NCBI GenBank assembly: GCA_963665235.2
Contig: CAXXLX010000001.1
Location: 1,534,902 to 1,598,901, forward strand
DNA: 64,000 bases
Direction: 5' to 3'
Origin: Candidatus Poribacteria bacterium
GTDB lineage: Bacteria > Poribacteria > WGA-4E > WGA-3G
The position numbers and the translations under genes are program-made. Below, one piece after another: positions 1,891 through 13,023 of the stretch. The first letter of the stretch is position 1. Each line of letters starts with the position of its first letter. The notes under the pieces were generated by a model. The model did not search any database and was not told the origin of the DNA. It saw only the letters and a program-made list of their open reading frames with translations.

Positions 1891-2922
1891 TCAATGCGCC
1901 GAGGGGGCTTCACCTTTGAGCACCCGGACAAAATCGTCAACAATCATATCAGCGACGCGTAGGTTTGCATCCTTTGTTCTACCAGCGATATGGGGTGTAT
2001 GCACGACGTTATCTCTATTCCGCAGTTCGTCATCAATCGGTACCGGTTCTCTGTCATAAACATCGAACGCCCCGGCGAGTTCGTCTTTGACAATCCGTTC
2101 GCGTAAGGCGGCCATATCGACAGCGTGTGCGCGGGTGATAATCACAACCAACGCGCCTTTATGCAGATGATAAATACGTTCACGGTTCAGCAGGTGTCGT
2201 GCAGAGGGTGTCGGTGGCACAGCGACAAAGACAATGTCCGCTCTATCGACAAGCGTGTCCATATCCACGCGTTCCACGTCCCATTCCTGTAGGAGTTCGT
2301 CTGAAACGAACGGGTCGAATCCCATAACGGTTGCCCCGAAGGCGCGACACCACTGTGCGATTTTCCGTCCAATCTGTCCAAGTCCAATAACCCCAATCTG
2401 TTTTGTGCCGAGGTCACCATTGACAAAGTCCGGGTCATCACAGAATTGGTGTGCAACGGGGAGTTTGTTGGGGCCCCATATCGGGTTGGTCCAATTCCAC
2501 AATTTTTCGCCGTGTGCCATTTGCATGTGCCACTGCGCGGTTCGGCGCAGCGAAGACAAAGCGAGTCCGAAGGCACATTCGGCAACAGATTGTGCCCAGG
2601 CACGTGTCGATTCAATCACAGGAATGCCGCGTGCTTGAAGTTTAGCGTAAGGAATACCGTGCCCCGTGTTATCAGTCATTGTCCCGAGCACTTTAAGTTT
2701 CGGGGCGTTATCAATACAAGCCTCAGTAAGGCTGCCGCCCCAGTGTGAAATTCCGATAACTTCGCTTAAGTCCACCTGTTCATGGAGGGGGTCTCTGCTG
2801 GTTGTATTGAGAACAAGTGTCACGCCTAATTCTTCAAGTCGTTTGACCATCTGTTCATGGACGAAGGGCCATGACCCCTCTAAGCCGGGGTTGCGAGTGA
2901 ATAGAAATTGGTGTGTTGCCAT
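1891..2922 (-). CDS. D-isomer-specific 2-hydroxyacid dehydrogenase family (NAD-binding)
   Basis: 343 aa. Has a Rossmann motif GLGQIGRKIAQ, a catalytic-region HTPHIAGRT, and AGGAG before the ATG. Confidence 0.85.
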   Translation of the reverse strand: MATHQFLFTRNPGLEGSWPFVHEQMVKRLEELGVTLVLNTTSRDPLHEQVDLSEVIGISHWGGSLTEACIDNAPKLKVLGTMTDNTGHGIPYAKLQARGIPVIESTRAWAQSVAECAFGLALSSLRRTAQWHMQMAHGEKLWNWTNPIWGPNKLPVAHQFCDDPDFVNGDLGTKQIGVIGLGQIGRKIAQWCRAFGATVMGFDPFVSDELLQEWDVERVDMDTLVDRADIVFVAVPPTPSARHLLNRERIYHLHKGALVVIITRAHAVDMAALRERIVKDELAGAFDVYDREPVPIDDELRNRDNVVHTPHIAGRTKDANLRVADMIVDDFVRVLKGEAPSAH

Positions 2923-3007
2923 GAAATCGAGTCTCCTATGTTAGTTTTACCATTAGTGACAAGTCGTGCTGAGCACTGCAAGTTAATTTTCGCTAAAATC
3001 CAGTACT

Positions 3008-3036
3008 ATTGTAAAGGATATTTTTTCGATAGTCAA
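3008..3036 (-). promoter_or_regulatory. sigma70-like promoter candidate for the 2922 gene
   Basis: The reverse complement reads TTGACT, 17 nt, TACAAT. It lies about 86 nt upstream of the start codon. Confidence 0.4.
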
Positions 3037-3045
3037 GCAAAAAGT

Positions 3046-3070
3046 GGGTGTGTAAAGTTTTTGTACACCC
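3046..3070 (+). repeat. dispersed word W1 (GGGTGTGTAAAGTTTTTGTAC, here closed to a hairpin by ACACCC)
   Basis: Exact or near-exact copies at 7326, 11352, 11911, 11940, 13002, 60847 and 61671. Confidence 0.85.
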
Positions 3071-3103
3071 GTTTGTAGTAGGGCGATTCATCGCCCGTCG
3101 GGT

Positions 3104-3235
3104 CGTATAACGTGAGTTTGAAAAATTTTCCCCTCGTATGAGGAGCGGGAAACCGTTTGCCCGAATACTGGGCGATAAGTCGGCTTCTTAGGGACGATAT
3201 GTTTATAGGCATCTGGGTTTCTGCCCGCCTCTTAG
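3104..3235 (+). repeat. ~135-bp dispersed repeat (left, direct copy)
   Basis: Aligns by eye at roughly 85-90% with the reverse complement of 8395-8530. Partial relatives occur at 11735-11900, 13870-13975 and 61696-61800. Confidence 0.7.
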
Positions 3236-3472
3236 TGGTTCACTCGGTAAATTCTTATGTCTTATGAGTTTCCAGATAATAGCCGGGACGGACTACTGTG
3301 CTTGCGACGATGTCGTGTCCATATTACCATACAAACTTAGCGAGCAGACCACTTAGTGGTTCACTCGGTAAATTCTTATGTCTTATGAGTTTCCAGATAA
3401 TAGCCGGGACGGACTGCCGTGCTTGCGACGATGTCGTGTCCATATTACTATACAAACTTAGCGAGCAGACCA
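3231..3472 (+). repeat. tandem duplication, 121 bp x 2
   Basis: Units start at 3231 and 3352, with a third start at 3473. The two copies differ at only a few positions. Confidence 0.9.
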
Positions 3473-3789
3473 CTTAGTCCTGTAGGGACGATATATTTAT
3501 AGAAAACCGTTTCCGCCCCGATTCTTAGTCCCGTAGGGACGATATATAGTGAAACCTATAATTACTTTGACACTTTTGTAGAAGCACACTTTCTAGTTTG
3601 CGGACACGCCTGCACAAACCTTATTGTTTGCGCTACCAAAACCCAGTCCGGGGGTTCATAGCACACGTAGCGGGAACCGCAGGGGCTGGGGGCCCTAGGG
3701 GAAACACCCCAGCAAAAACACCCCTACAAACGGGTTGTGTGTGTGCCCTATCACAGCGTGCTCACATATTTTCAGAATTTACTATATTT

Positions 3790-5198
3790 ATACTAAAGTT
3801 TGGACAATATTCTAGATTTCAAGCAGCCTTGTCAAACGGCAGGGCGTTATCTTGCGTTTTCTCGGTCAGAATATTCTGCGAGTTTGTTTTATCTTCGGAA
3901 CTCGCAGAATATCGGCGGCACAAAATCTGTGCTTGAAGATAAGCAACCCGCAGCCCTTGTGTGAGTTTCTTCGGTTTATACCAATGAATGCCTAGTTTTT
4001 CGCAGACCTGCTCAACACTGATACGTTTTTCTGTCGTTTCCGGCATAGCAAAGATTAGCTTTGTTAGAGACGCTGCAACGAAACTCAGTTGTCCGAAGCG
4101 ATTGATGCTTTTGCGCGACTTGACCTGATACCCGCTGAAACCGAAGTGTTGCTTTGCGTCACGAAAGGCTGTCTCTATCTCCCATCTGCGGCGATAGTAT
4201 TCAACAATCTGTGGTATCTCAAGCGTCAAATCTGTCGTCCAGACACAGAAATACCGGTAAGGTTTTGACTGTCTCGTCTCGGTCTCGTTCGGATGACAAC
4301 TAGTCGGACATCTACCGGACACATTTTTGCACTATCTGTGATGCCACTTGATAGTCTTTGCCCATTAGGGAGACCACTTTATACCGCAAGCGCCGGATGT
4401 TTAGACGCGGTCCGTATTTCTTCGGACGCCCGGGGCTCCGACGCTTCGGGGCTTTAGGGCGGCGGTAAAACACCGCATTTGACTTCGCACGACACAAGAT
4501 ATGGTGTTTGAATGCCAAAACCGTCTCAAACACTTTGCGACGGGCGAACCCTCTATCAAAGATAATCAGTCCCGCAGGTATCTTTGATACGATACGCTTC
4601 AATACCGCATCCCCTTTGTCACGGACTGTCTTCGGAACAACCAGCCTGACCCACACAGGAAATAGTAAACATTGCGTCGCAGTCTCACACAATAAACCCA
4701 AAGCCGCAAACTCATGACCGAAGTGAAACTTAGATTGATTCACACGCCCCCTCTGATACTTGAAGTTGCGAAAAAAATGTAGACCATATTGACCCTTGCC
4801 GGTTTTCACAGCAGACGTGTGGTCATAAACATAAACCCAATTCGGAAATACCTGCTGTAGCTTTTCAACGAGCTTCACCGCAACAGCATCCGCACTCCAA
4901 ACACCCCGGGACAGAAACTTCGGTAAAGACCAATACTTCGTCCCGAAGACACTTGATTGATAAAGACCCGTCAGGGTGCCACCCTGGCTATTGGAAGCAA
5001 TAAAGCCAAAAATCATCGCTTGGAAAAGCGCAAAGTTTTGTGGGTTGAATAAACAACTAAAATGTGATAGAATATCTTGTAAGCAGAAAAGAAGGTTCAT
5101 TTTTATTTTCCTTTCGAAAATTTAATTTATTTTAAAATGATACCTACTTTTTTGCTTCTTGTCCATCTTAATTCTTAAAATTGTCCAAAGTTTAGTAT
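3790..5198 (-). mobile_element. IS4-superfamily insertion sequence (~1.4 kb) with terminal inverted repeats
   Basis: ATACTAAAGTTTGGACAATATT at 3790-3811 pairs with the reverse complement of 5177-5198 (ATACTAAACTTTGGACAATTTT). The repeats enclose the transposase frames. Confidence 0.75.
3819..5100 (-). pseudogene. DDE transposase (IS4/IS701-like), split into two frames
   Basis: ORFs 4312-5100 and 3819-4322 overlap by 11 nt in different frames around a CAAAAAT run. The second part has the Y-2-R-3-E-6-K signature (YYRRRWEIETAFRDAK). Confidence 0.65.
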
Positions 5199-5390
5199 TC
5201 GTTCAGAAAACGAGATAAATCAGTTTAATTCGGTATAAGCTAGGTTTACAGAACAAGTTTTTTATGAGTGTCAACGAAAAAAAGTTAACAAAACACAGAA
5301 ATGAACGGATATATAGAGAAAGATGTCCTGTGTGATGGACAACACCCAAAAAAGTTGACACCGCACACGTTTCTATAGGAGGATAGATTT

Positions 5391-6410
5391 ATGACAAAAA
5401 AAGTTTATGTAGGAATAGGTATCCTGATGCTTCTTGTCCTCGGAAGTGCCATTTTCCTCCTGAATCACAAGTTAGACACGGAACCTGAAGTTATCTATGA
5501 ACCGCCCTCAAAGGAGGTTTTAGAGAACCTACGAAAGCAAACCGAACGGGGAACTGCGGCGATAGAGCAACAGTCCGAAGTCAACGGACAGCGTCGCCCG
5601 GTTTCCGACACATCAAACCGTAGTACCGAAACAACAACCGCGGCAGAGAACAATGCCGGTGCCGCGGAAGCAATACCCGACGACTTGGCAGGTATCCCCC
5701 ACGTGCGGGGTTTTACCTCGACCAATCCGATGTTCGCGGAGGGTGTCCCTGAACACTTACAATGTCCCAAACAGTGGGTGGGACTTTACGATAGTGAGAC
5801 AGAAGACGACCTATCGGAGATTCAAGCCTACATGCTACCTATTATTTACGAGATTATGACAAAGTATAACCCCGAACGGCCACTGACAGAGGTCTGGCCT
5901 GCGTATATTGAAGCGGAACGCTTTTATTACGAGAATGCGGACCCAGAACTGGGAAACGCAAACGGTGCTAGCGGTAGATTTGATTGGGAATATCAACACT
6001 TGCTAGATTTCCCAGAGATAATGGTTCTTGCTGAAGAAGACCCGCACCGAATGTCAACCCTTCAGCGGGTATTGATAGGACGTTGGCCTGCCACTTTGAA
6101 CCAACATGAACTGCCGGATGGCAGAATATTCTACGCAGGACACGAAGCGAATTATGAGGTCTGGGAGAAACTCCCCGATGGTATGATGCACCCCGATGGT
6201 ATGATGCACCGGTCTGTCGGTTTTGGGCATTCGGACACGGGCCGCATCATCAAGATTTACCCTGACACGATGACAGATGAAGAACTGAAAGCGATCGGTG
6301 GATGGAATTATAATATTGACCCGTATTCAACAGGGTTTTATACACTCCCGCCTGATGCGACCCAGCGCCTCATAGAAAAGATAAAATCTTTTATCTCAAC
6401 GCCACATTAA
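5391..6410 (+). CDS. hypothetical membrane-anchored/secreted protein
   Basis: 339-aa ORF with AGGAGG before the ATG and an N-terminal hydrophobic helix. No family recognised. Contains an internal PDGMMHPDGMMH duplication. Confidence 0.55.
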   Translation: MTKKVYVGIGILMLLVLGSAIFLLNHKLDTEPEVIYEPPSKEVLENLRKQTERGTAAIEQQSEVNGQRRPVSDTSNRSTETTTAAENNAGAAEAIPDDLAGIPHVRGFTSTNPMFAEGVPEHLQCPKQWVGLYDSETEDDLSEIQAYMLPIIYEIMTKYNPERPLTEVWPAYIEAERFYYENADPELGNANGASGRFDWEYQHLLDFPEIMVLAEEDPHRMSTLQRVLIGRWPATLNQHELPDGRIFYAGHEANYEVWEKLPDGMMHPDGMMHRSVGFGHSDTGRIIKIYPDTMTDEELKAIGGWNYNIDPYSTGFYTLPPDATQRLIEKIKSFISTPH

Positions 6411-6438
6411 CGCAGTGCTACATTTTAGGAGGTATCTC

Positions 6439-7212
6439 ATGAAAAAAACAGGTATATTTTTCGTTTTAATAGTGTTGATGTTTTTGATATTTGTAGATTA
6501 TGAAGGCACAGCGAAACCGAAAAAGACATATGAAGTGCTGAAAACCCATGATTGGGAAACAGCCGATGCTGATACAGAGCCGATGAATTCTAATTACATC
6601 CGAGGCAGAGCGAAAAAGTATGGGTACCGAGTGAAGGCGAGCGGTTTCTTGAACGGTGTCACCCAAAACGGCACCATATACGGTCGATCTGGGGATGCCT
6701 ATGCCAAAGTAGAGGTTTACACAGACCTAATGAAGATAGGGGACGAAGTGAACGTAGTGTCTTGGATTCGAGCAACCGCTGCACGAAACCTCATCGACCT
6801 GCCTTCACAAGAGTTTCTAAAAAATGTCGGACACCGACCAAAGCACCGAAAACCTAGCCATAAGCATGAATGGGGCTATGTGCAATATGGAGTCTCCTAT
6901 AAACCCGGAATCGCCTCATATGTAAGATTGCATAAGTTGAGGTTCTGGGAGGATCCAGTTAGAAGACCTTTTGAGCATGACTTTGACGTAACCAGTTACT
7001 TCCATAGGGTAGGAAGTCCCACGGATCTCCCCGACCCGAACCCTTATATCATTGCGGATATAGATATCACGAGCCGTCAGTTTGTAGGGGCAGGAATAGG
7101 TTTTGCTACATTCTATACCCCTATGTGTGAGGGGAGTGATGGTGAGCATCCGATCCCCCTCTTGGAGGATAAGTGCCCGGGTGCTCCAGGCGCAACATAT
7201 ACGACACCGTAA
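6439..7212 (+). CDS. hypothetical secreted protein
   Basis: ATG at 6439 follows AGGAGG. N-terminal signal-like segment MKKTGIFFVLIVLMFLIF. No family recognised. Confidence 0.55.
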   Translation: MKKTGIFFVLIVLMFLIFVDYEGTAKPKKTYEVLKTHDWETADADTEPMNSNYIRGRAKKYGYRVKASGFLNGVTQNGTIYGRSGDAYAKVEVYTDLMKIGDEVNVVSWIRATAARNLIDLPSQEFLKNVGHRPKHRKPSHKHEWGYVQYGVSYKPGIASYVRLHKLRFWEDPVRRPFEHDFDVTSYFHRVGSPTDLPDPNPYIIADIDITSRQFVGAGIGFATFYTPMCEGSDGEHPIPLLEDKCPGAPGATYTTP

Positions 7213-7230
7213 GGATTTGTGTATTCCATA

Positions 7231-7269
7231 ACATAGGCAGGTAACCGTTCTGTTACCTGCCTATGTTTT
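7231..7269 (+). terminator. Rho-independent terminator
   Basis: Perfect 15-bp stem (7231-7245 with 7252-7266), 6-nt loop, then TTTT. It starts 19 nt after the stop at 7212. Confidence 0.75.
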
Positions 7270-7325
7270 CACCTATTCCCTCTGCATCTGCCGTACCTTC
7301 TTTACACTAAAGCCGCGTAACCTCT

Positions 7326-7346
7326 GTACAAAAACTTTACACACCC
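7326..7346 (-). repeat. word W1 (inverted copy)
   Basis: GTACAAAAACTTTACACACCC. It directly abuts the 5' truncation point of the Res fragment. Confidence 0.85.
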
Positions 7347-7365
7347 GTTCGGAAATGCAACAAGT

Positions 7366-8289
7366 GTGCCTAAACCGCCCAATGCACGGAAGCGTGGTGT
7401 TGCCAAACTCAAAAAAGCGATGATACTCACACCGGAATTTGAGGCACTCTGGGAACGGATTAAGCACAAAACGCGATACAAAGTTGACATTGACACTGAA
7501 AAATTAATCGCTGAGGTCGTTGAGGCATTAGATGAAACCAACATCCAATTACCTAAAATAACGATTAGAAAGGGTATAGTGGTAATTGATGAAGAAAACG
7601 AGTTTAAGGTTCAACACACCGGAGACGGCAGCTTGGCATATCGCTTGTCGGGCCGTGCAAATGTTTTGAGGTTAATTGAGCATCGGCTGGCGCATACTAC
7701 CCCTACAATGAAATTGACGCGTCAGACCCTTTGGGAAATTCTCAATCGCACAAAAAATCAACAAGCAGTCTTAGACAATCCCCCTGAATTTTCTAAAGTT
7801 GTGGTGAAACACATCAGGAAGAAAATTATGCATCAACTGATTGATGGTGTAAAGTATGAGAAGATCGGTGAGGTGTATGAGATGCGTCAGTTCGATTGCA
7901 AGTTGGAAAGCTGGAAGGATTGCATGGTTCCCGCGTCGCGCTCCATCTACGATTACGTAATATGGGATTCGGAAGTTGAAAAGAGGTTCGTTGAAGGATT
8001 AGAAGAGCGAGACGACATTAAACTCTATCTGAAACTTCCTGCTTTTTTCACTGTGCCAACCCCTATAGGCAACTATAACCCGGATTGGGCGATAGTCAAA
8101 GAGGACAGAGATGCACATGGTGAACCGACCGGTAAAGAAAATCTCTATCTAGTTAGAGAGACCAAAAGCACAACTAATTCAGAAGACCTCCGAATCCGTG
8201 AACAACAGAAAATCAATTGTGGCGAGCGGCACTTTCGTGATGCTCTCTGCGTTGATTACGCGGTTGTTACCTCTCCTGAGGAAATCTAA
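7366..8289 (+). pseudogene. C-terminal fragment of a type III restriction enzyme Res subunit (endonuclease domain only)
   Basis: 307 aa. Contains LTPEFEALWERIKHKTRYKV and a PD-(D/E)XK-like NYNPDWAIV...LVRETKST. No helicase domain. The open frame begins just after W1. Confidence 0.5.
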
Positions 8290-8394
8290 TAGCTGCAGGA
8301 TGGACGCAGCGCGTTGATAATTCCTTATGATAAACGTGAGCTTGATAATAAATGTCCGTTTGCACTAACCTTTATAAAGATATCGTCCCTACGG

Positions 8395-8530
8395 GACTAA
8401 AAGGAGGATAGAAACCCAGATGCCTATAAAGATATCGTCCCTAAGGAGCGGGCTTATCGCCCAGTATTCAGGCAAACAGCCCGCTCCTCATACTAGGTGA
8501 AAACTTTTTTCAAGCTCACGTTAAGATACG
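8395..8530 (-). repeat. ~135-bp dispersed repeat (right, inverted copy)
   Basis: Reverse complement of the 3104-3235 copy. It overlaps the last 5 codons and the stop codon of the GH2 gene. Confidence 0.7.
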
Positions 8531-11185: not shown

Positions 11186-11380
11186 TTATCAGTCCATCCT
11201 TACTGTTTTCGCGCAAATAGCTGTCAGTCAATAACCGTTGTCGGGTTTCGCAAGCTCGACCCGACCTATAAATAACCAGTCATTCGCACGTGCTGAATTT
11301 GTTTTCTTTTATAATACACAATCCGCATATTTTATGCAACGATTAAAATACGAGTGTGTAAAGTTTTTGTACTATGATAG

Positions 11381-11481
11381 TGGGAAGGGTGGAAGGGTGG
11401 AAGATTGGAAGGATGGAAGAGGGTGGAAGGGTGGAAGGTGGAAGGGTGGAAGAGTGGAAAGATGGAAGGGTGGAAGAGTGG
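11381..11481 (+). repeat. GGAAGGGTGGAAG-type microsatellite-like word (W5)
   Basis: Degenerate GGAAG(G/A)(G/T)TGGAAG iterations. Related tracts at 16313-16355 (inverted), 30334-30370 and 31565-31600. Confidence 0.8.
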
Positions 11482-11910
11482 ATTTCGCTTGTGTTGTCTG
11501 AATCGCGGATGACACGGAGAACACGGATTTCGCGGAGTGTCCGATGCGTAACAATCCAAGTTTTGTGATTATAGTTTTAGCGTTTTTTTGTCTGAATGCA
11601 CGTCGCATTTGGGCGAGTACGCCACAAATCGCGGATTATCGCGGAGAACGCGGAAGACGCGGAGTTTAAGAAATGTCCGCCTATCTAGAAAGGTATCGCG
11701 TGCCCAGCACGCTCCTACATAACACGTTAAGTACAACGTGAGTTTGAAAAAAAGTTTCTTTAGTCCCAGTATTCGGGCAAACGGTTTCCCGCTCCTCAAG
11801 GACGATATCTTTATAGATAACCGTTTTCCCAACGCTTCTTAGTCCCATATTCGGGCAAACGGTTTCCCGCTCCTAGCACAAACGGACATTTATTATCAAG
11901 CTCGCGTTAA

Positions 11911-11960
11911 GTACAAAAATTTTACGCACCCAATCAGACGGGTGTGTAAAGTTTTTGTAC
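11911..11960. repeat. two W1 words in outward-facing inverted orientation separated by AATCAGAC
   Basis: GTACAAAAATTTTACGCACCC, AATCAGAC, GGGTGTGTAAAGTTTTTGTAC. Confidence 0.85.
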
Positions 11961-12005
11961 GGCTGCGATATTTTTTATGAAGAAAAATCAAACAGTTCGC
12001 AACTA

Positions 12006-12375
12006 ATACCATTTCTAATTGAAAATGTCTCTTGATTGTAGCATAAACTTCCAGTTTGTGCGCTTTATCGTAGCATAAACTTCCAGTTTGTGCTTTATTG
12101 TAGCATAAACTTCCAGTTTGTGCGCTTTATTGTAGCATAAACTTCCAGTTTGTGCGCTTTATCGTAGCATAAACTTTTAGTTTGTGCGCTTTATTGTAGC
12201 ATAAACTTTTAGTTTGTGCGCTTTATCGTAGCATAAACTTCCAGTTTGTGCGCTTTATCGTAGCATAAACTTCCAGTTTGTGCTTTATTGTAGCATAAAC
12301 TTCCAGTTTGGGTCCTCCGTTCTCCGTTTCATTTCTAACAACCGGTAATGATAGAATAATTAATAAAAATGGTAT
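12006..12375 (+). mobile_element. MITE-like element E1 with internal 32-bp VNTR (9 units)
   Basis: Ends are ATACCATTT...AAATGGTAT. A conserved 5' head (TTCTAATTGAAAATGTCTC) and a conserved ~75-bp tail flank the GTAGCATAAACTTCCAGTTTGTGC... units, which have periods of 32 or 30 bp. Confidence 0.6.
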
Positions 12376-12494
12376 AACATAACAGAGAACCAAAACATTT
12401 TTCGGAGGAAAGCGGCACGGTTTGCAACTCACCTGATTAGCCACCGATAGCGAAAGTGTGACATTTCATTTTTTTGAAATCGTCCAAGGTGGGT

Positions 12495-12995
12495 CAAAAC
12501 CGCTTACGAACATAGACGGGGCAGGCGTTCAGGAACATCCACCACCGAGAACCGAATGTCACACTTTGTGTCAAAAGTGTAACATTTACACCAGAACAGC
12601 ACACAAAAGTAGGCAGGAGTGATAACCGAAAACCGGCAGCCAAAATGGCACAACGCGTTTTTTTGTGTTGCGAAAAATATAGGGGTAAATCGCCTATAAA
12701 CATAGACGTGGCGTGGGTTTGTGCGAATACAGCACCGAGAACCAAATGTTACACTTTGTGTCAAAAGTGTAACATTTCCACCGGACCGCCTCAAAAAGTA
12801 GGAGGCAGCACGGTAAGAAAAGTCCGCAGAACTGATACCTGAAATCGGCGGTTGAAATGACACATTTTGTTTTTTTTGTGTTGCGAAAGCGAGAGTGCAA
12901 AACGGCTTACAAACATAGATAGGGCATGCGTTTGTGCACATGCAACACCGAAAACCAAATGTTACACTTTGTGTCAAAAGTGTAACTTATGCACC
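12495..12995 (+). repeat. degenerate tandem repeat, ~190-215 bp x 3, each with a 10-bp-stem hairpin
   Basis: Units start near 12495, 12683 and 12897. Each carries GTTACACTTTgtgtcaAAAGTGTAAC (one copy has GTCACACTTT). Confidence 0.7.
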
Positions 12996-13001
12996 GGTTT
13001 T

Positions 13002-13023
13002 GTACAAAAACTTTACACACCCC
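13002..13023 (-). repeat. word W1 (inverted copy) followed by AATCAGAC
   Basis: GTACAAAAACTTTACACACCC(C), then AATCAGAC at 13024-13031. Confidence 0.85.

Follow-up and report, generated by a model that had tools for sequence, protein, structure and literature searches.

A 21-bp ISKra4-type transposon end at the truncation points of three gene relics in a Candidatus Poribacteria genome

Three gene relics and a recurring transposon tip

Three gene relics in a 64-kb stretch of a Candidatus Poribacteria genome (hereafter the window, to which all coordinates without a contig label refer; C1, C2 and C3 denote contigs of the assembly) break off at copies of one 21-base word, GGGTGTGTAAAGTTTTTGTAC (W1). 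This word is the terminal inverted repeat of an insertion sequence (IS) of the ISKra4 group (Mutator-like DDE) and of its non-coding derivatives. The relics, which derive from a type III restriction endonuclease gene (res), a tnpB gene and an Rpn/YhgA-like gene, all adjoin the GGGTGTG tip of W1, with breakpoints 0-3 nt from it. Each junction is probably one half of an original insertion, the remainder of which was lost by a later deletion. Read in this way, the truncations are real but an ordinary result of transposon insertion followed by deletion, with no new mechanism, and the victims are dispensable or mobile DNA. The features on which the argument rests are as follows.

3046..3548, no strand: W1, exact, in left-end orientation; the interior modules are those typical of a MITE, and the copy at 7326 is its nominal partner
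7326..7346, no strand: W1, exact, in right-end orientation (element interior to the left); the repeat only (21-22 bp), with unique DNA on the inner side
7347..8292, plus strand: type III restriction endonuclease (Res) relic, aa 570-881; RE_endonuc present, helicase part missing
11940..13022, no strand: intact W1 MITE, 1083 bp; its target duplication, 9 bp long, is CAATCAGAC, and beyond its right tip, at 16 nt, is TTGACA-N17-TAAAAT
60657..60846, minus strand: 3′ relic of an IS605/IS1341-type element, comprising the last ~45 tnpB codons and the right end; cut at W1
60847..60867, no strand: W1, exact, in left-end orientation with the interior on its right; the next feature is only ~30 bp away
60899..60919, no strand: a second word like the repeat but degenerate, GAGTGTGTAAATATTTTGGAC, oriented as W1 at 60847
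61063..61433, minus strand: C-terminal part (DUF4351 region) of the Rpn/YhgA-like pseudogene to which the fragment at 61557..61670 also belongs
61434..61556, no strand: short palindromic heptamer-repeat MITE inside the Rpn gene; the paralogue at C2:180915 carries this insertion too
61557..61670, minus strand: Rpn/YhgA-like N-terminal fragment, ~codons 62-97, with a weak PF04754 match; the first ~61 codons are cut at W1
61671..61817, no strand: W1 with 1 mismatch, in left-end orientation; it is followed by ~126 bp of MITE interior but by no partner inverted repeat

W1 is the terminal inverted repeat of an ISKra4-group element

Within the window, W1 occurs 8 times at up to 3 mismatches, against 0.01 occurrences expected by chance, and the copies that adjoin relics occupy positions 7326-7346, 60847-60867 and 61671-61691. 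Across the whole assembly (5.31 Mb in 4 contigs), 272 ends are found at the same stringency, 90 of them exact. A single intact IS (C1:327050-328506, 1457 bp) carries exact W1 at both ends, where the inverted repeats are complementary at 21/21 positions, and encodes a 444-aa protein that scores 217.4 bits against NF033572 (“ISKra4 family transposase”), an NCBIfam equivalog model with a curated cut-off of 205 bits. This is the one ISKra4-family transposase gene in the assembly, which besides contains a few fragments of the left end of the IS.

Corresponding elements exist in related genomes. An IS from a Candidatus Poribacteria assembly, the transposase of which is 55% identical at the amino acid level, is bounded by an inverted repeat, GGGTGTGTAAAGTTTTTGCACA, that is nearly the same as W1 and is complementary at 22/22 positions; the closest transposases in the genome collection, of which this is one, come from Candidatus Poribacteria assemblies. 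At up to 2 mismatches, W1 is present in 24 of 61 related genomes, all belonging to one family, with as many as 157 copies, and a reversed W1 control pattern was found in 0 of the 61. The transposase model, the inverted repeats, the target duplications and the promoter spacing (the latter two described below) all place the W1 element in the ISKra4 family. The first-pass annotation of the window had taken GGGTGTG to be the outer tip of an inserted element, and this reading is borne out by the position of W1 at the bounds of the transposase gene, by 9-bp duplications outside the tip and by the repeat of the related IS. The transposase, the duplications and the related IS likewise rule out W1 as a promoter, a site-specific recombination site or a cassette boundary. 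In the annotation of this genome, W1 is usable as a flag for element boundaries and pseudogene breakpoints.

Non-coding derivatives and insertion preference

Most of the W1 ends belong to something other than the autonomous IS. There are 84 neighbouring, inward-facing W1 pairs, which enclose non-coding segments of 0.2-1.8 kb, and a 9-bp direct duplication lies directly outside the GGGTGTG tips in 22 local pairs exactly and in 23 at up to 1 mismatch; 49 of the 84 pairs are without a target duplication. Target duplications in the ISKra4 group are 9 bp long. With lengths of 200-1800 bp, neither long ORFs nor a transposase, shared repeats, target duplications and many copies, these elements are MITEs. 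By the sequence immediately internal to W1, the ends can be sorted into five large, mutually unrelated classes (59, 35, 22, 19 and 18 ends) and many small ones, and 43 ends have unique interiors; several MITE families therefore have only the 21-bp repeat in common. Altogether, W1 elements number more than 130, among which modules of up to several hundred base pairs are shared, and the single transposase gene presumably acts in trans to mobilise the non-autonomous derivatives.

The insertion sites show a preference. At 60 of the 272 tips, TTGACA (up to 1 mismatch) is located 15-17 nt outside the tip, compared with 1.9% of random positions, and at 52 of these 60 tips TAnnnT follows 16-18 nt beyond TTGACA, compared with 4.4% at random. 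W1 elements thus land 16 bp upstream of sigma-70 -35 boxes, which matches the published habit of the ISKra4 group, members of which insert 13-17 bp upstream of sigma-A promoters and, when their repeats are symmetric, on either side (PMC3942029). The MITE at 11940..13022 served as the reference for such a canonical insertion.

Several arrangements of W1 elements were observed in addition. The reference MITE forms part of an abutting W1 MITE pair (window 11352-13022, spacer AATCAGAC) that recurs in inverted orientation at C2:205111-206237, the two-MITE block having been copied as a unit. Outside several W1 tips (for example C1:1473761, C2:453249, C2:519604 and C2:715355), at a distance of 5-15 nt, is the motif AACTAAAT(A/G)(A/G)CCCTG, probably the end of another repeat family that serves as a favoured landing site. 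At C1:3933399-3934004, the sequence next to a W1 right tip is an IS fragment (positions 170 to 63 of the IS) with 100% identity to the master copy, which points to recent activity of the W1 system; a second fragment (positions 71 to 15) is situated 420 bp beyond the first, and the 9-bp overlap between the two (positions 63-71) suggests that another element inserted into that IS copy. Finally, in the region C1:327050-331022 the intact IS is joined by 2.5 kb of neighbouring DNA, in which there are two ORFs (157 and 288 aa, measured from stop to stop), and by a W1 end of the MITE type. The whole region is flanked by an exact 9-bp duplication, TGAAAGCAA, with TTGACA 16 nt outside the right tip, and has the appearance of a compound W1 element whose 3973 bp moved together.

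The relics end exactly at W1

The Res relic at 7347..8292 illustrates the precision of the junctions. When the frame is translated from position 7321 and aligned to type III Res proteins from two related genomes, 881-882 aa in length (75-76% identity over 313 aa), the alignment starts at homologue residue 570, which corresponds to window codon 7348-7350, one nucleotide past the end of W1; the residues encoded by W1 itself do not align with the full-length homologues. The relic covers positions 678-955 of the 986-position NCBIfam Res model and retains the C-terminal endonuclease domain (Pfam PF19778). Its first 569 residues, which bear the helicase, are missing, as the first-pass annotation had supposed of the helicase half. 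Searching the assembly by tblastn with the full-length Res of a relative recovered no N-terminal part, and with that relative's Mod as the query only distant methyltransferases were matched, so that the cognate mod is absent as well. With both the helicase part and mod missing, the locus does not qualify as the Res of a type III restriction-modification system and is a relic rather than a working gene.

No target duplication is common to the 7326 W1 and its nominal partner at 3046. Beside the latter, a strong outward promoter, TTGACT-N17-TACAAT (window 3031-3045, 2990-3036), faces a 2-hydroxyacid dehydrogenase gene (1891-2922, minus strand); at 9 nt rather than 16 nt from the W1 left end, its spacing is non-canonical. 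Two ORFs between the ends (5391-6410 and 6415-7212) were considered as part of the restriction-modification island of relatives, to which they have no similarity. The former encodes 339 aa, for which neither Pfam nor NCBIfam gives a match. It is part of a multi-copy host family that matches 11 times in this genome and is represented in 12 of 40 relatives, sharing being widest over the first ~50 residues. The 93 bp upstream of this ORF (window 5278-5370, including a TTGACA) are duplicated at C1:1398145-1398237 with 98.9% identity, and at C1:1398239 the duplicate is cut by an exact W1 tip 11 nt past the TTGACA. A 135-bp inverted repeat (3104-3235 and 8396-8523), considered as a W1 partner, is actually a different, nested MITE with ACGTGAG termini. 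Its right-hand copy resides between the stop codons of Res and GH2 (window 8331-8523), where an ACGTGAG...CTCACGT MITE at 8396-8523 is the inverted partner of 3107-3235, together with a W1-less copy of the “TAAACGTGAGCTTGATAATAAATGTCCG” module, other copies of which sit directly inside W1.

At the second junction, window positions 60657-60843 align at 83-86% with the 3′ ends of two tnpB copies of the same genome, one with an intact frame (C1:1066533-1066733) and one with a frame disrupted near its 3′ end (C1:2460344-2460547). Homology starts at CAGATAG, 3 nt from W1. Since ~45 of ~390 codons remain, roughly 88% of the gene has been lost, rather more than the 5′ three quarters given in the first-pass annotation. 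The degenerate word GAGTGTGTAAATATTTTGGAC just inside this W1 resembles a low-copy variant end, GGGTGTGTAAATATTTTGTAC followed by TTATG.GTCAAT, that is found at 9 other places.

The third junction can be read against a close paralogue. Window 61434-61670 is 99.2% identical to C2:180915-181151, and this identity ends exactly at 61670, in agreement with the claim that the N-terminal fragment is cut at 61671. The C2 copy and three other Rpn paralogues contain ~61 further N-terminal codons. Because the heptamer-repeat MITE is also present in the C2:180915 paralogue, its insertion predates the truncation by W1, and the paralogue shows the state of the Rpn pseudogene before truncation.

Considered together, these alignments to longer homologues, the check that the first-pass annotation had proposed, define all three breakpoints, and in no case does homology run through W1. 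They uphold its statements that W1 is at the truncation point of each relic, at the coordinates it gave, and that Res, tnpB and Rpn all adjoin the GGGTGTG side; that the orientation is always the same is an automatic consequence of a transposon tip. With 8 tips in 64 kb, coincidence is not a reasonable explanation for three breakpoints that each lie 3 nt or less from a tip (an estimated ~1e-3 each). The annotation had further suggested that an insertion or an adjacent deletion took part of each gene, and indeed the missing halves were found neither across the far side of the elements nor elsewhere in the assembly.

Relocation of these halves was pursued as well and is rejected: beyond the tblastn result for Res, a blastx search of the outer flanks of all 272 ends turned up the complementary part of tnpB or Rpn beside none of the W1 tips. 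Inversion or translocation by recombination is likewise rejected, the 9-mer target-duplication partners between distant ends being segmental duplicates only.

Coding relics are rare among W1 tips

An enrichment of W1 at pseudogene boundaries throughout the genome, which the first-pass annotation had raised for a survey, was not borne out. An open frame of at least 100 codons touches 34 of the 272 tips, as compared with 67% of random positions, and by Pfam these 34 frames, with the sole exception of Res, are intact neighbouring genes whose start or end is a few dozen codons away. Among the 23 insertions with a verified duplication, none is intragenic. This depletion of W1 tips from genes is in line with the specificity for insertion upstream of promoters, and it fits the suggestion that the victims simply reflect where insertions are tolerated. 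About 26 non-nested tips adjoin repeats whose paralogues extend beyond the junction, the other half being nowhere within 8 kb, and most of these repeats are non-coding. The coding relics at W1 tips are Res, tnpB, Rpn and two truncated IS pieces (C1:2509606 and C1:3933399); there is no general rule that ties W1 to pseudogene boundaries.

Some W1-containing stretches recur together with their flanks (C3:13653-17491 and C1:1015656-1019566; C2:849940-855474 and C1:4354083-4356290). These are either real segmental duplications or assembly redundancy, the contamination estimate being 5.65%.

Origin of the junctions

All three elements at the relic junctions are truncated on their inner side, to the repeat only at 7326, to ~30 bp at 60847 and to ~126 bp at 61671, and no partner repeat was found for any of them. 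An insertion followed by a later deletion is therefore the most likely history, in which the order of events and the kind of deletion are inferred. A W1 element would have inserted into a dispensable gene (res, tnpB or rpn) and thereby created an exact junction. A later deletion, bounded within the element on one side and past the missing half of the gene on the other, would then have removed the rest of the element along with further DNA, which at res probably included mod, and the outcome would have been a gene stump fused exactly to the repeat tip.

Certain features fit this history less readily. Unlike canonical insertions, the three junctions all lack a -35 box at +16, although a promoter-like target could have resided on the lost side, or the events could have been off-target. 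Insertion into an ORF is atypical for this element, given that none of the intact insertions is intragenic. At 7326, the deletion would have had to end right at the inner edge of the 21-bp repeat; alternatively, the 4.3-kb block at 3046-7346 may have been a compound element carrying unique DNA. Moreover, neither a pre-deletion nor an empty allele was found in other genomes or, by exact 24-mer search, in metagenomes.

The exactness of the junctions could also reflect a deletion made by the transposase, in which a resident W1 end attacks the victim gene intramolecularly, so that deletion and fusion to the tip occur in one step. A junction that is exact at the tip and without a target duplication is the classical signature of IS-mediated adjacent deletion, as known from IS1, IS10 and IS903, and such an origin would be in keeping with a system that looks recently active (given the IS fragment at C1:3933399) and with the many W1 pairs that have no target duplication. 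However, an adjacent deletion should leave an intact element with its other end in place beside its original far flank, and at the three sites there is neither a partner repeat nor a recognisable interior. Because all three elements are truncated inside, this model would still need extra deletions, and the new junctions lack the -35 box that marks a normal target of the transposase. To our knowledge, the chemistry and mechanism of ISKra4 transposition have not been characterised experimentally. We regard this origin as rather unlikely. Homologous recombination between directly oriented W1 elements or other dispersed repeats, which would leave a tip beside a gene that had been interrupted by a second element, would have abundant substrates, considering the number of elements and their common modules, the density of other repeats in both junkyards and the majority of W1 pairs without matching target duplications. 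Yet it predicts an intact hybrid element with two repeats, seen at none of the three sites, and reciprocal target-duplication partners at a distance were not found. The unique DNA on the inner side of the 7326 W1 offers no substrate for recombination, and a prior insertion would still be required to make the junction. Recombination is accordingly very unlikely, and, like adjacent deletion, it would be possible only with additional deletions.

The junctions might instead be chimeric, the contig having been mis-joined at a repeated element. Mis-joins classically occur at repeats, the genome is apparently metagenome-assembled, with the contamination estimate given above and MAGs as its closest named relatives, and contig C3 duplicates part of C1. 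Against this, the assembly consists of only 4 contigs, one of them 4.36 Mb, which points to long reads, and the stretch of shared sequence, at 7326 as at 60847, is just 21-22 bp, which is not enough to misdirect an assembler working from long reads. That mis-joins should have arisen three times independently, always exactly at a tip and with an in-frame relic left behind, is unlikely, and we consider an assembly artefact highly improbable.

A broader reading holds that W1 ends and the single ISKra4 transposase repeatedly make one-sided rearrangements, pruning defence and mobile genes and packaging host DNA between two W1 ends in a manner comparable to Pack-MULEs. It is prompted by the compound element at C1:327050-331022 with its exact target duplication, by the 43 W1 ends with unique interiors and by the two host-family genes in the 4.3-kb block at 3046-7346. 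We think this broader reading unlikely. The recurring 21-mer of this Poribacteria genome is explained as a transposon end, one autonomous IS of the ISKra4 type is documented as supporting more than 130 promoter-targeting MITEs, and the junctions show a probable route by which a type III restriction gene, a tnpB gene and an Rpn gene became stumps. They add to the cases in which the erosion of defence genes is linked to mobile elements, here in a lineage of sponge symbionts.

Comparison with known systems

Three bodies of work bear on these observations. IS1, IS10, IS903 and IS256 are the subject of the literature on IS-associated gene truncation and adjacent deletion. As in those cases, the stumps described here are fused exactly to the outer tip, have no target duplication and are missing their other half; the difference is that the elements here are truncated inside, for which a single transposase-made deletion is insufficient.

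MITEs that are mobilised in trans by a related IS include the Correia, Nezha and BrickBuilt-type elements. The W1 derivatives resemble these in being non-coding, in sharing their repeats with an autonomous IS and in their target duplications, high copy number and mainly intergenic location. They differ in that several unrelated interiors are built on one repeat, and in that there is at least one compound element (the IS and two ORFs at C1:327050-331022, within an exact 9-bp duplication).

The third comparison is with the ISKra4-group IS, the p-MULT 4 Mutator-like DDE transposases of Guerillot et al. 2014 (PMC3942029). The transposase of the W1 element scores above the NCBIfam cut-off for this family, and the element shares with the group its near-perfect inverted repeats starting with GGG, its 9-bp target duplications and its placement 16 bp upstream of a sigma-A -35 box, which may be on either side. 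Three differences set the present system apart. One autonomous copy is accompanied by non-coding derivatives, more than 130 in number and with interiors of at least five unrelated kinds, which have only the 21-bp repeat in common; the host is a member of Candidatus Poribacteria; and the three relic junctions are non-canonical, being intragenic, with no promoter at +16 and no target duplication.
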